Of a stretch of 40,754 nucleotides of DNA, positions 12,249-40,298 are shown piece after piece (position 1 is the first letter of the stretch; each line of letters starts with the position of its first letter). Under the pieces are notes generated by a model. The model was given only the letters and a program-made list of their open reading frames with translations. It was not told the DNA's origin and did no database searches. The stretch is taken from the UHGV virus genome UHGV-1365945; one strand, written 5' to 3'. The DNA is from a virus. The position numbers and the translations under genes were made by a program.

Positions 12249-12551
12249 ATGAAACAATTTAACATTGAATTAGTAAGACGTGACAAAGTCAAAGTGGAGC
12301 TTGATCCAGAATTTTTTAACGAAGAATGGTTTGCAGAATTTCGCCACTTTTTTTATGACTATGAAACTTTAGAGGAAATAGCAGAATATATCACGTTTAA
12401 CGTTGTGCATAATAACGAAACTTTCATCGATGGAATTGGAATACCTCTGAGAAATGGAAAACGGCCATATTGGCTAAAGAAAGATGAAGAAGTAAACGAG
12501 CACGTAAACGTTATTTATAACAGTTATGATACTGAGATTGAGTATGAGTAG
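12249..12551 (+). CDS. Hypothetical protein (100 aa)
   Basis: RBS GAGGAGGAAGCAGA-ATG. Confidence 0.45.
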   Translation: MKQFNIELVRRDKVKVELDPEFFNEEWFAEFRHFFYDYETLEEIAEYITFNVVHNNETFIDGIGIPLRNGKRPYWLKKDEEVNEHVNVIYNSYDTEIEYE

Positions 12552-14212: not shown

Positions 14213-14734
14213 ATGGTACTTTTTGATGTAAAAAAATATCAAATTCCTAATCCAGAAGAAATCGATATGAAAGCGACAAGAAAGAATTTTGAAACCTTTA
14301 TGACAGCTTACGGTTCTGTTCGAGAAAAAGTTGGAAAAAATAGATTACCAAAAATCACTCAATCATTTAGTTTGATTCCTTCTACAACAAATAAAGAGTA
14401 TTCAAGTGATGCTGAACGCTTTGTAATAGAACGAGAAGAGTATATGGATGAATACAAAGAATTAGAGGAACTATTTTCATTAGGCTATTTAGCAATTTGT
14501 AATCCTTTAAAAAATGGTGGTACTAATCGAAGAAGGCAAATCTTTATGCTTCGATATGTTCATGGTATAGCTGTACAAGATATAGCGGAAAGCAAGTATC
14601 TTAGTAAAACAACAGTTGTTGAAGAGAGCCGTTTGGCATTGATTCAATTCTGCAAAGAAACAGAATTATTAATTTATAACGATGAAACAAAGCCTATTAT
14701 TAATGAGAAGAAAACTCTTGATTCTGAAAAATAA
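14213..14734 (+). CDS. arpU: ArpU-family phage transcriptional regulator (putative late-gene activator, sigma-70 region-4-like)
   Basis: C-terminal segment RRQIFMLRYVHGIAVQDIAESKYLSKTTVVEESRLALIQF is HTH/region-4-like. Position before the packaging genes is typical. Confidence 0.55.
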   Translation: MVLFDVKKYQIPNPEEIDMKATRKNFETFMTAYGSVREKVGKNRLPKITQSFSLIPSTTNKEYSSDAERFVIEREEYMDEYKELEELFSLGYLAICNPLKNGGTNRRRQIFMLRYVHGIAVQDIAESKYLSKTTVVEESRLALIQFCKETELLIYNDETKPIINEKKTLDSEK

Positions 14735-14805
14735 AATTTTTGGTCTTTTTACGACTTTTTCCGACGCAAATCGGTCGAGCAATGTTGTAATATAGTAGTG
14801 TCGAA

Positions 14806-14880
14806 AGATAAGGAAACGAGGTAAGGCATGCATTACCTTTCTTAGCTCCGTTTCCTTTATCTTTTGAGGCTACCTATAAA
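14806..14880 (+). terminator. Long imperfect stem-loop followed by a U-rich tract, a candidate terminator/attenuator after arpU
   Basis: GATAAGGAAACGAG...CTCCGTTTCCTTTATC outer stem with an inner AGGTAA/TTACCT stem, then CTTTTGAGG. Confidence 0.4.
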
Positions 14881-15109
14881 AAATAAAGAATAAGGATGTG
14901 GAAAGTCCAGTTCTTTCTGTCTCGTTTAGTCTAGGTAGCAAATATTGCAATAAACTTGGCATAAAGCTTACACGTAGACGTACGCTGAAAGCCTTTGTCA
15001 AGATAGCGCTATGTTAGTTGCAATGATCACTCACAAATCAGACGTTCTCAAACTAAAAGAAATGGGGTGTAATTCCTCTCTCTTTTTTCTACAGATTTGT
15101 GAGTGTTAA

Positions 15110-15181
15110 TGGGGCATAGCTTAATCGGTAGAGCAGCGGTCTCCAAAACCGTTGGAATAGGTTCGAGTCCTATTGCCCCAG
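15110..15181 (+). tRNA. trnW: tRNA-Trp (anticodon CCA), phage-encoded
   Basis: Cloverleaf folded by hand: acceptor TGGGGCA/TGCCCCA, U8, D-stem GCTT/GAGC, anticodon stem GCGGT/ACCGT with loop CTCCAAA (U33, CCA, A37), 4-nt variable loop, T-stem ATAGG/CCTAT with T-loop TTCGAGT, discriminator G. No encoded CCA. The GGTCTCCAAAACC core matches bacterial tRNA-Trp. Confidence 0.8.
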
Positions 15182-15276
15182 TAGGTAGCATAGCTACTTA
15201 AATAAAAAAATCGTCAATAAGTCAAATGTAACTACCTTTACGATCGAACGACGATTAAGATTTTCCCTCCTATCTG

Positions 15277-15310
15277 AGACTGCATAGTGAAAGTGCAGTC
15301 TTTATTTTAT
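15277..15310 (+). terminator. Rho-independent terminator after the tRNA (AGACTGCA-tagtgaaag-TGCAGTCT followed by TTATTTTAT)
   Basis: Perfect 8-bp stem with a T run. Confidence 0.7.
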
Positions 15311-15349
15311 GTTATAAGACTGATATGATATTCTTATGGAGGGATAGGA

Positions 15350-15769
15350 ATGGGATATTCAGATATTAAGGAAATGTTTATTGATGCAAAAAATCTTGCA
15401 AGCGGAGCGAATGATTTACAATTAAAAAGTATTCTTTTAGATATTCAAGGAAAAGTATATGAACTTCAAGAAGAAAATAGAGAATTACGGAATCAAATAA
15501 ATGATTTAAAACAAGCAGATATAATAAAATCTGATTTAATTTGGAGTGGAAATGTCTATTTTTACCATGGAGATGGACCATATTGTACTAACTGTATGGA
15601 TAGTGATTCTAAATTAATACGTACAGCATTATCAAGAATAAATTATTCAGAGTATGCTAAAGCTGAATGCCCTAGATGTGATAATGTAGTGAGGACTGCA
15701 ATAAAAGTAACGGACAAAACTGAAGAAATTGACCAAAAAATAAAACAATATATAAAAGATCTCGGTTGA
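15350..15769 (+). CDS. Hypothetical coiled-coil plus zinc-ribbon protein (139 aa)
   Basis: RBS GGAGGGATAGGA-ATG. C-terminal CTNC...CPRC motif. A hairpin/T-run overlaps the 3' end. Confidence 0.55.
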   Translation: MGYSDIKEMFIDAKNLASGANDLQLKSILLDIQGKVYELQEENRELRNQINDLKQADIIKSDLIWSGNVYFYHGDGPYCTNCMDSDSKLIRTALSRINYSEYAKAECPRCDNVVRTAIKVTDKTEEIDQKIKQYIKDLG

Positions 15770-15805: not shown

Positions 15806-16327
15806 ATGCATATTGAAAAAATGAAATTATCAGATTTAAGACCGGCGGAATATAATCCAAGAGTAAAATTGAATCCAGGTATGGCAGAATATGAAAAACT
15901 TAAACAATCAATTTTAGAATTTGGCTTTGTTGATCCTCCCATTTTTAATAAAAATACAGGAAACTTGGTTGGTGGACATCAACGCGTTACTGTTGCAAAA
16001 GAATTGGGGCTATTTGATGAGATAGAGGTTTCTGTGGTTGATTTACCATTGGATAAAGAGAAAGTTCTAAGCATAGCTTTAAATAAGATTTCTGGAAATT
16101 GGGATGAAGATAAACTAACAGAGTTACTTAATGAACTAACTGCAGATAATTTGGAGTTAACAGGGTTTGACAACGAAGAATTAGAAAATTTAATTGAAGA
16201 TGCTGACATTCCCAATTTTGAACCAGGTAGTATTGATGACCAAGGAGATTTGACGAAACTTGAACCGAAATTTGTTAAATGCCCATGTTGTGGAGAGGAG
16301 TTCGATTTAAGAGATGTTGAAAGTTGA
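15806..16327 (+). CDS. ParB-like nuclease-domain protein (ParB N-terminal/sulfiredoxin fold)
   Basis: KLSDLRPAEYNPRVKLNPGMAEYEKLKQSILEFGFVDPPIF...GGHQRVTVAKELG are ParB N-terminal-domain motifs. C-terminal CPCC zinc knuckle. Confidence 0.7.
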   Translation: MHIEKMKLSDLRPAEYNPRVKLNPGMAEYEKLKQSILEFGFVDPPIFNKNTGNLVGGHQRVTVAKELGLFDEIEVSVVDLPLDKEKVLSIALNKISGNWDEDKLTELLNELTADNLELTGFDNEELENLIEDADIPNFEPGSIDDQGDLTKLEPKFVKCPCCGEEFDLRDVES

Positions 16328-16922
16328 TTGGGCCACTCATGAAGCTACAAAGTATGCTTGCACGCACTTTCATTACAGCAAAAGTGTGCCTGTTGGAAAG
16401 CTCATTAAAATAGGAGCATGGGAAGATGGCCAATTTATAGGAGTAGTAATTTTTAGTAGAGGTGCAAATAAATGCATAGGAAGCCCATATGGATTGAAAC
16501 AAACAGAATGCTGTGAACTAACTAGGGTTGCTTTAACCAATCACAAGTCGTTTGTATCTGAAATTTTGGCAAAAGCAATTAAGTTCCTAAAAGAATTTAA
16601 TCCAAGCATGCAATTAATAGTAAGCTATGCAGATACAGACCAAAACCATCATGGAGGTATCTATCAAGCAACAAACTGGATATATACTGGAAAGACAGAC
16701 GGGGAACGCTATTTCATTGTCAATGGAAAAAAGACGCATCCTAAATCTATTCATGCCAAGTATGGGATGGGGTCTCAAAGGCTAGAATTTTTGCATAAAC
16801 ATGTGGATCCAAAAGCTTCCATTTATGAATCAAAAGGTAAACATAAGTATTTAATGCCACTAAATAAAAAGATTCGTAAAAAAATCATTAAATTATCAAA
16901 ACCTTATCCAAAAGCTAAATAA
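16314..16922 (+). CDS. Conserved phage protein (202 aa) translationally coupled to the ParB-like gene; function unknown (possible nucleotide/DNA-modifying partner)
   Basis: 14-bp overlap with the upstream gene. Contains HHGGIYQATNW and Cys/His-rich segments. No confident family assignment can be made by eye. Confidence 0.5.
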   Translation: MLKVDWATHEATKYACTHFHYSKSVPVGKLIKIGAWEDGQFIGVVIFSRGANKCIGSPYGLKQTECCELTRVALTNHKSFVSEILAKAIKFLKEFNPSMQLIVSYADTDQNHHGGIYQATNWIYTGKTDGERYFIVNGKKTHPKSIHAKYGMGSQRLEFLHKHVDPKASIYESKGKHKYLMPLNKKIRKKIIKLSKPYPKAK

Positions 16923-39774: not shown

Positions 39775-40260
39775 ATGGTGAGACGAACTAAAAAAGAGTT
39801 TAAACCTTACAATGATTATGTTGACAGGCCATTTGAACTAAAGTGGCCAACGGCGTTTCCGTTAGGCGAATTAACTGAAGCAATAAAGAGCACTGATGAA
39901 TATCACGCTCGAAATATTGAGAGACTACCACAACAATCCCAAAACCAAATAGAATATTTTTTAGACCGCTCAATTAAACATAATAAGGTACTAGAGATTC
40001 AATTGAATTCGTTAGATGAATATGACCGTGTGAAACCACATGTTTTTGGTGTTTTTCGTGGAATGGCTGAGTTTGATGTTGTTCTAATTGGTGAACAAGA
40101 AATCGATTTTTACGACATAAGACATATTCAGATTCATAACTTCACGAAATGGAGTGAAGAGCATGTGACTGAAGAAAATCCATTCGACGAAGAACAAGAA
40201 CGCTGCGAAACAATAGATGAATTCGTAGATGAATATTTTGATGATGAATGGATAGAATAA
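39775..40260 (+). CDS. Hypothetical acidic protein (~161 aa)
   Basis: ATG 39775 with a GGAGAG RBS. Strong terminator downstream. Confidence 0.5.
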   Translation: MVRRTKKEFKPYNDYVDRPFELKWPTAFPLGELTEAIKSTDEYHARNIERLPQQSQNQIEYFLDRSIKHNKVLEIQLNSLDEYDRVKPHVFGVFRGMAEFDVVLIGEQEIDFYDIRHIQIHNFTKWSEEHVTEENPFDEEQERCETIDEFVDEYFDDEWIE

Positions 40261-40261
40261 T

Positions 40262-40298
40262 AAAACCCCAACTCTTATCTTGAGTTGGGGTTTTATTT
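40262..40298. terminator. Bidirectional rho-independent terminator AAAACCCCAACTC-ttatctt-GAGTTGGGGTTTT
   Basis: Perfect 11-bp GC-rich stem flanked by A and T runs. Confidence 0.8.

Follow-up and report, generated by a model that had tools for sequence, protein, structure and literature searches.

UHGV-1365945 is an integrated temperate phage of Enterococcus faecalis, of the phiEf11/phiFL type, that carries a tRNATrp(CCA) gene just downstream of a perfect inverted repeat. In this stretch of 40,754 nucleotides (nt), hereafter the window, with coordinates counted from its first letter, the repeat is the outer stem of a hairpin that is conserved in related phages, where the position beyond it is taken by tRNAs of several identities, by other structured RNAs or by protein genes. 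The reading that we favor, with moderate confidence, is that the tRNA is the cargo of a late leader driven by the phage regulator ArpU, and that the hairpin is a conserved element of this leader.

A conserved hairpin precedes the tRNATrp gene

The sequence-only reading of the window had reported a perfect 12-bp inverted repeat enclosing 54 nt in front of the tRNA, and both its coordinates and its pairing were confirmed. The left half (CACTCACAAATC, 15028-15039, plus strand) and the right half (GATTTGTGAGTG, 15094-15105, plus strand) form a stem that we call P1, supported by an inverted-repeat scan, by folding and by covariation over 36 distinct sequences. The complementarity extends to 17 nt at 88%, and a gap of 4 nt (TTAA) separates the end of the repeat from position 1 of the tRNA. 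P1 surrounds an A-rich strand, the sequence CUCUUUUUUCUACA and a short inner hairpin, P2 (15055-15088, plus strand, from folding), in which GGGG (15064-15067) faces CCUC (15075-15078) between an A-tract and a run of six U's (15083-15088). The 90-nt hairpin RNA has a predicted folding energy of -22.2 kcal/mol (z = -3.4), with a lower stem of 12-15 bp and an internal loop of 24 and 15 nt.

By itself, the repeat is statistically unremarkable. The window has three perfect inverted repeats of 12 nt, at separate places, whose spacers do not exceed 100 nt, and 300 dinucleotide shuffles gave a mean of 0.99 such repeats, with at least one in 48% of the shuffles. Support for the repeat must therefore come from its conservation and covariation in relatives, and not from its perfection. 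Indeed, the U-A pair at 15038/15095 is an unusual feature of the window and of one other locus (L041), most copies having U·G there, so the perfect match is a local detail of the window.

To collect relatives, we scanned the IMG/VR database twice, once with an 18-nt motif of the conserved sequence downstream of the tRNA (the trailer, described below; 43 loci) and once with a degenerate pattern covering the U-tract and the 3' arm (at least 119 loci). About 130 copies of the hairpin, which measures 80-90 nt, were found in E. faecalis phage contigs, representing 64 distinct sequences. In an alignment of 36 distinct sequences, P1 and P2 are paired in 93% of cells, versus 35-53% when the partners are slid by one to three columns, and the P2 pairs are kept in 99%. 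Two-sided changes occur at seven P1 pairs; one example reads C-G/A-U in the window, C-G/G-C in L004b and U-A/G-C in phiEf11. These compensations are independent of the hairpin search pattern, since the left arm lay outside it and since the same changes are seen in loci retrieved through the trailer motif alone. Among mismatches in the 12 core pairs, read on the plus strand, G·U outnumbers A·C by 32 to 4. Neutral decay of a DNA palindrome would give about equal numbers, so the asymmetry points to an RNA stem that pairs in the plus-strand transcript; the plus strand is the coding strand for all neighboring genes.

No known RNA family accounts for the hairpin. Only the tRNA passes the Rfam gathering threshold in the window, and a search up to an E-value of 10 on 14650-15450 and on five relatives gave no credible T-box, ribozyme, riboswitch or Y RNA. 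Outside E. faecalis phages, a pattern scan of genome contigs for the hairpin returned 42 unrelated matches and no Enterococcus genome, and was uninformative. We also considered a leader peptide, as a 15-codon open reading frame (ORF) crosses the hairpin from an ATG at 15063 to a TAA at 15108-15110; this was rejected because the phiEf11 version stops after two codons and is hence not conserved.

The tRNA, its trailer and its terminator

ARAGORN predicted a single tRNA in the window, tRNATrp(CCA) at 15110-15181 on the plus strand, and Rfam model RF00005 matches it over its full length (69.1 bits versus a gathering score of 29). The gene has its anticodon at 15143-15145, a U1-A72 first acceptor pair, discriminator G73 (G15181) and no encoded 3' CCA. 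Anticodon CCA and discriminator G73 are the identity elements for tryptophanyl-tRNA synthetase, and both are present in the phage tRNA. Relatives supply 18 distinct Trp variants, in which 99.2% of the cloverleaf cells are paired and no acceptor-stem change breaks a pair; this suggests that tRNAs at this position are under constraint and are presumably functional. The gene is complete, with nothing pseudogene-like about it, and lies between arpU and a ParB-like gene, as first proposed from the sequence. It appears to lack its own promoter: no sigma-70-like promoter fits in the 4 nt between P1 and the tRNA, and there is no conserved one within the hairpin.

A comparison with the host tRNATrp had also been suggested. 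We took the probable host gene from a contig with a chromosomal-type Trp-His-Gln-Cys-Leu cluster; the phage Trp lineage is 81% identical to it. The anticodon loop (CUCCAAA) is the same in both, the anticodon stem differs only at pair 27-43 (G·U in the phage versus A-U), and the first acceptor pair is reversed (U1-A72 in the phage versus A1-U72).

The tRNA is followed directly by a small hairpin (15182-15200, plus strand), predicted by folding and with covarying variants, and then by a conserved trailer (15201-15275, plus strand) that displays CCCUCC (15265-15270) in a hairpin loop and is 84-90% identical across phages with different tRNAs. An intrinsic terminator (15276-15310, plus strand), consisting of a 10-bp stem followed by a T-run, closes the tRNA and trailer cassette. 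Its stem covaries in relatives and homology stops past it. The claim that the tRNA has a terminator of its own is right in that a terminator-like site is present, called by a terminator scan at 15276-15302; this site is 95 nt past the tRNA and ends the conserved 120-nt trailer, so that it is not the tRNA's alone. The RNA from 15182 to 15312 folds with z = -4.2 into the 5' hairpin, a stem, the CCCUCC-loop hairpin and the terminator.

Three minor observations concern this region. The segment 15182-15312 is better conserved than the tRNAs themselves (84-90% across tRNA types), and its shape is what a small RNA with a C-rich seed, derived from the 3' trailer of a tRNA, would have. A potential pairing between tRNA and trailer (an 8-nt match, repeat I6) is absent in phages with tRNAAsn, and we took it as chance. 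A weak Rfam match to the Enterococcus small RNA RefB11 (minus strand 15083-15259, 18.6 bits, E = 0.36) is antisense to both tRNA and trailer, aligns poorly and is probably spurious.

The position past the hairpin holds interchangeable cargo

A BLAST search with the intergenic region showed that relatives have a tRNA at the same place, with another identity: tRNAAsn(GTT) in phiEf11, phiFL1A and SEsuP-1, tRNAArg(TCG) in phiFL3B and tRNAGlu(TTC) in IME197. tRNATrp(CCA) was found in one Efs 1-1-1 contig. The trailer-motif scan extends this pattern. Together with the window and five of the six phage loci fetched before, the 43 loci make a set of 49 sequences, and a tRNA is present at a fixed distance 5' of the motif in 47 of them: Asn(GTT) in 18, Glu(TTC) in 14, Arg(TCT) in six, Trp(CCA) in five, Arg(TCG) in three and Lys(TTT) in one. 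All of these tRNAs begin with TGG and have U1-A72.

Some of these identities appear to derive from one another by changes made in place. tRNAGlu(TTC) and tRNALys(TTT) are 2 nt apart, at anticodon position 36 and at its neighboring stem pair (L006:1450-1523 compared with L017 and L073). tRNAAsn(GTT) and tRNAArg(TCT) are 87% identical (L001 and L025): their acceptor stems are the same, their T arms almost so, and most differences fall in the D-loop and anticodon arm. Trp forms a lineage of its own.

When the hairpin is taken as the anchor, a tRNA follows directly in 68 of the roughly 130 copies and 350-390 nt further on in about 30; about 25 have none. The class with TTAA and then a tRNA comprises 44 Trp, 16 Asn and six Arg(TCT) genes, plus one Trp body with a CGA anticodon (L086). 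In other classes the hairpin is followed by a 385-nt non-coding stretch and then tRNAGlu, tRNALys or tRNAArg, by the ROOL RNA, by a tRNA-like element, or by protein ORFs that have good sigma-70 promoters of their own. ROOL occupies the tRNATrp position, 10 nt past a hairpin of the same type, in five loci (L067, L095, L127, L065 and L089); in the first of these it scores 263 bits against Rfam model RF03087 (gathering score 99.1) at L067:6641-7219. Homology among relatives breaks exactly at the end of the P1 3' arm, and the classes beyond are unrelated to each other.

Because the same hairpin precedes other tRNAs, the ROOL RNA, tRNA-like RNAs and protein genes, it appears to belong to the leader and not to the tRNA, and is not tRNA-specific. 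Of the three explanations offered in the sequence-only reading, a processing or regulatory structure therefore came closest: the repeat is a conserved RNA stem, although not an accessory of the tRNA.

Two of the alternative cargoes deserve brief description. The 385-nt non-coding stretch of the phages with Glu, Lys and Arg(TCG/ACG) tRNAs (L191:1566-1948, also L006:1064-1449) has no ORF of at least 70 amino acids on either strand, a fold z-score of -2.6 and no Rfam match, and carries CUGAUG/CUGACGAG/GAAA motifs. The tRNA-like element, seen in 23 loci in all (for example L006:1278-1328, L073 at about 12251-12381 and L067:7231-7512) and absent from the window, combines a 7-bp acceptor-like stem, a class II-like D arm (TGGCGGAA.AGGTAGACGC) and a T arm (CAAGGTGCAAATCCTTG). 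Where the anticodon arm would be, it has an insert of about 25 to about 230 nt, and neither ARAGORN nor Rfam calls the element.

A putative ArpU-dependent promoter and the phiFL2A late leader

The gene upstream of the hairpin (14213-14734, plus strand) encodes an arpU-family late transcriptional regulator (TIGR01637 phage_arpU, 46.4 bits with a cut-off of 43.1) and also matches the transcriptional activator family phrog_248 (1.8e-23). Beginning 6 nt past its stop codon are four phased direct repeats (14740-14776, plus strand), TTGGTC at 14740, TACGAC at 14750, TCCGAC at 14760 and TCGGTC at 14771, spaced by 10-11 bp, which we regard as putative ArpU boxes. A -10-like TATAGT (14791-14796, plus strand), with no -35 element, follows, and conservation of this motif predicts a late start near G14803. 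In relatives, each arpU allele has its own set of direct repeats right behind it and then a common -10/start motif; TA(T/A)(A/G)(G/A)T-AGTGTC(G/A)AA follows the repeats in five different arpU modules, again with no -35 element. The predicted 5' end of the transcript would fold into a first leader hairpin, P0 (14801-14867, plus strand; inverted repeats I4, I12 and I13, and folding). RNA spanning 14797-15312, of which P0 is the first helix, is unusually structured (z = -7.4).

We assign these repeats to ArpU because their position right after the arpU stop codon is that of the repeats characterized in phiFL2A, and by this analogy they and the -10 element would form an ArpU-dependent late promoter. 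In phiFL2A, ArpU binds three 7-nt repeats (TTGGCGG) that directly follow arpU; terS is not expressed without these repeats, and a transplanted repeat block confers specificity (Quiles-Puchalt et al. 2013, PMC3753634). Transcription from a plasmid promoter through arpU fails to reach terS, which places a terminator in the intergenic region (PMC3753634). The sole 5' end mapped there by rapid amplification of cDNA ends is a G located 118 bp upstream of the terS ATG, which the authors read as a transcription start (PMC3753634).

Re-examination of the phiFL2A sequence suggests a different origin for this end. The order there is repeats, -10 motif, P0, the P1/P2 hairpin, 385 nt of non-coding sequence, a tRNAArg(ACG) scoring 42.8 bits, a trailer hairpin, a terminator and terS. 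Counted back from the annotated ATG (L191:2143), the mapped end is G2025 (GQ478084.1 position 14705), 3 nt past the tRNA discriminator A2022, at the foot of the trailer hairpin and about 650 nt downstream of the ArpU-binding repeats. On inspection, no promoter-like sequence was seen in front of G2025. The phiFL2A 5' end is thus probably the product of tRNA 3' processing, and the true late start would lie beside the ArpU boxes, some 600 nt before G2025. On this reading of the only mapped 'late promoter start' of this phage group, the late operon of these Gram-positive phages would begin hundreds of nucleotides before the mapped end and be matured through tRNA processing. As the start of the trailer (TAGGTAGCATAGCTACTT) is identical in the window and phiFL2A, the equivalent processed end in the window is predicted to be G15184.

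Neither the tRNA nor the hairpin is mentioned in the phiFL2A study (PMC3753634). Its arpU-terS region shares with the window the ArpU gene, the repeats immediately behind it, the P1/P2 hairpin, a tRNA, the trailer hairpin and the terminator. It differs in having the extra 385-nt stretch, a low-scoring tRNAArg(ACG), a shorter trailer and terS directly next; the window has five ORFs that separate terS from the cassette.

A model for the late leader

Taken together, these features are consistent with the following sequence of events. An ArpU-dependent late promoter just past arpU would start transcription near 14803 and produce a long structured leader composed of P0, the P1/P2 hairpin, tRNATrp, the trailer (15182-15275) and the terminator (15276-15302), with some read-through of the latter into the downstream genes. 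The position past the hairpin would serve as a cargo slot, to be filled by a tRNA, by ROOL, by the non-coding stretch and its tRNA, or by protein genes. P1, whose 3' arm lies past the U-tract, can form only once transcription has passed P2, and it has no part in a termination mechanism; in read-through transcripts it may pack the A/U-rich leader compactly, ending 4 nt before the tRNA. tRNATrp, having no promoter of its own, would be co-transcribed with the leader and cut out by RNase P on its 5' side. RNase Z trims CCA-less tRNA precursors in Firmicutes, and as no CCA is encoded here, this enzyme is expected to act on the 3' side, with the CCA end added afterwards. After cleavage, the upstream leader RNA would have P1 as its 3' cap, the downstream RNA would start with the small protective hairpin, and the excised tRNA would supply extra tRNATrp late in infection.

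Several points weigh against this reading. The late promoter, start and processing sites of the window are transferred from phiFL2A or predicted from motifs, and the authors of the phiFL2A study interpret the mapped 5' end as a start and place the terminator between arpU and this promoter (PMC3753634). The strong terminator at 15276-15302 stands before the downstream genes, so that read-through or additional promoters would be needed. P2 in the window is too weak (-3.7 kcal/mol) for a confident terminator role. The U-tract and some of the 3' arm were restricted in advance by the pattern of the second scan. The relatives are all E. faecalis prophages that recombine and are close kin, and their common ancestry inflates the covariation counts. 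Finally, the reference tRNATrp is only probably that of the host, as judged from its tRNA cluster.

A bolder version of the model is doubtful as a whole. Here, the ArpU late promoter would drive a processed leader that acts as a platform for interchangeable RNA cargo, excision of the tRNA would create the 5' end of the terS mRNA, and either ArpU complexes or P1/P2 would make transcription resist terminators. If true, late transcription must pass at least two terminator-like structures, with resistance of the kind conferred by lambda Q or by HK022 put RNA. The published phiFL2A start of terS would then be a tRNA 3'-processing end.

Why a tRNATrp?

As the sequence-only reading anticipated, codon-bias compensation explains the tRNA poorly. 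Most early and structural genes of the window are 93-98% identical to those of phiEf11, and the two phages have the same codon usage (10.4 and 10.7 Trp codons per 1000, respectively), yet one carries tRNATrp and the other tRNAAsn; we therefore rejected codon compensation as the determinant of tRNA identity. Because identity changes quickly between nearly identical phages, tRNA-specific pressure imposed by the host may fit the pattern better than phage codon usage.

The suggestion that the tRNA acts as a secondary integration site did not hold. The 27-nt phiEf11 attachment (att) core (ACTAAGCAAGTGCCGCCATGTGTCTGA) opens the window exactly, at 1-27, and adjoins the tyrosine integrase region (102-1406), whose DNA is 98% identical to that of phiEf11. 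The phiEf11 att core sits in ffs, the gene for 4.5S RNA (PMC12540744). Given that the window begins with this core and with a nearly identical integrase region, the prophage was probably inserted in ffs as well, and a tRNA-type integration site was rejected, the att core lying beside the integrase and 15 kb from the tRNA (PMC12540744).

The third suggestion, protection against a host anticodon nuclease, can be put more broadly: the phage tRNA may mainly replace host tRNATrp that is cleaved or depleted by a host defense (an anticodon nuclease or similar), and not provide a general boost to translation. We consider this a tentative possibility, on the improbable side of even. It is consistent with the rapid turnover of identity (Trp, Asn, Arg, Glu and Lys) among near-identical phages, which includes remodeling in place, and with the equal codon usage of the Trp and Asn phages; phage tRNAs that counter tRNA-targeting defenses also have a precedent (PMC10264068). 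However, the phage tRNA and the probable host tRNATrp hardly differ in the anticodon stem-loop, with no sign of a nuclease-resistant loop, and expression from a late leader comes late for counter-defense. To our knowledge, no Trp-specific nuclease has been described in E. faecalis. Since the anticodon stem-loop matches the probable host tRNATrp, the phage tRNA does not appear to be of the loop-variant 'resistant' type (PMC10264068). Simple replenishment of depleted tRNATrp is possible.

Alternative explanations for the hairpin

The best-surviving alternative to a leader element is that the hairpin is the intrinsic terminator of an early operon ending in arpU, with promoters beyond it serving the tRNA and the late genes. 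The run of six U's behind it and the flanking A-tract give the hairpin the general look of a terminator, the phiFL2A reporter data show that some terminator is present between arpU and terS (PMC3753634), and homology modules stop at the hairpin, as they often do at the ends of transcription units. Yet the ArpU-binding repeats are upstream of the hairpin, so that late transcripts must cross it, and the 4-10 nt between the hairpin and its tRNA or ROOL cargo leave no room for a promoter. The inner stem is also weak. Although the U-tract is present, P2 has a stem of four pairs and a 4-nt spacer, its energy without the U-tract is -3.7 kcal/mol in the window (-4.1 to -9.7 kcal/mol in relatives), and the terminator scan was silent at this site. 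The covarying outer stem, partly past the U-tract, would contribute nothing to termination, and the stronger terminator in the trailer could explain the phiFL2A reporter result. We therefore judge this alternative unlikely.

Less probable still is that the hairpin is an RNase III site comparable to the intergenic sites of T7 and SP82, splitting the leader from its cargo and stabilizing the ends. The long imperfect hairpin, in which the internal loop separates the lower stem from an upper one, and its location directly 5' of structured cargo (tRNA, ROOL or tRNA-like) would suit such a role, with which covariation at the RNA level is compatible. The internal loop is nevertheless far larger than in RNase III sites known to us, and for tRNA cargo RNase P already sets the 5' end.

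A role of the repeat as DNA, whether as a protein operator, as an attC-like site for cassette exchange or as the ends of a miniature transposon, seems very improbable. Homology breakpoints do coincide with the end of the 3' arm, and there are chimeric hairpins that mix arms of different types (for example L022, L101 and L134); the latter can be read as homologous recombination within the conserved loop and U-tract. The mismatches are strand-asymmetric, as described above, and the compensatory changes preserve pairing but not sequence, the opposite of what is expected of an operator. The window has a single copy of the hairpin, and all relatives keep it at the same place behind arpU; there is neither a duplicated target nor a dedicated recombinase close by. 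Two loci have two copies, about 670 nt apart, through duplication of the module. That the repeat is a functionless chance feature can be dismissed almost entirely, for although shuffled windows yield about one such repeat, the stem is kept with compensatory changes throughout the 64 distinct sequences.

Comparison with known systems

Phage tRNAs, ArpU boxes and leader hairpins are each of a known kind, and the finding as first stated is modest. In the literature searched, we found no prior description of the tRNA slot or of the P1/P2 hairpin. What appears to be undescribed is this hairpin, a fixed slot with interchangeable RNA cargo, tRNAs that switch identity, and the coincidence of the phiFL2A 5' end with a tRNA 3' end.

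The closest parallel in overall arrangement comes from lambdoid Shiga toxin (Stx) phages. In 933W, the ileZ-argN-argO tRNA genes are reportedly located downstream of Q and the late promoter P_R', in the leader of the late operon. As in the window, the tRNAs come after the late regulator and its promoter and before the late genes, accessory genes gather in the same region, and a leader terminator (t_R') likewise follows the late promoter. The Stx phages differ in having several tRNAs that read rare codons; the window has a single tRNA for a one-codon amino acid, whose identity varies in sister phages. Q is also a proven antiterminator, whereas ArpU has been described as an activator. With intrinsic terminators in general, and with lambda 6S RNA and t_R', the P1/P2 hairpin shares a hairpin and U-tract a few hundred nucleotides past a late promoter; it differs in its weak inner stem and in the additional covarying outer stem that spans the U-tract, which terminators do not need.

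A second parallel is with tRNAs that evade host defense. Those of phage T5 are said to act against the PARIS and retron systems. More generally, phage tRNAs have been proposed to evade or offset tRNA-targeting defenses (van den Berg et al. 2023, PMC10264068). The window resembles these cases in carrying a copy of a host-like tRNA that codon usage does not explain, and differs from them in that the anticodon loop matches that of the probable host and in that a temperate phage carries a single tRNA.

Third, ROOL and GOLLD RNAs are 'often near tRNA islands' in phages and prophages (PMC5737381, PMC12286853). In the five sister loci, ROOL fills the tRNATrp slot itself, past the same type of hairpin, with tRNA-like elements further downstream; Rfam found neither ROOL nor GOLLD in the window. 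If the slot is part of the late leader, ROOL, an RNA of unknown function, would be placed in a defined, experimentally tractable context under ArpU control. A tRNA slot that changes so fast among near-identical temperate phages amounts to a natural experiment on the reasons for carrying tRNAs, one that speaks against codon compensation.

Neighboring genes and other repeats

On the 3' side of the cassette are a coiled-coil ORF, a ParB-like ORF and a Mom-like ORF, with terS (17995) and terL beyond. The ParB-like ORF (phrog_620) overlaps the Mom-family DNA-modification ORF (PF25680, 153.6 bits; phrog_1384) within 15806-16922. This pair is 97% identical to phiEf11 ORFs 62-63, where the Mom-like ORF 63 is annotated merely as conserved hypothetical. 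The other perfect inverted repeats of at least 12 nt in the window are at 2028-2069 and at 40259-40297; the latter consists of a 16-bp stem and a T-run past the last ORF, and is likely to be a terminator.

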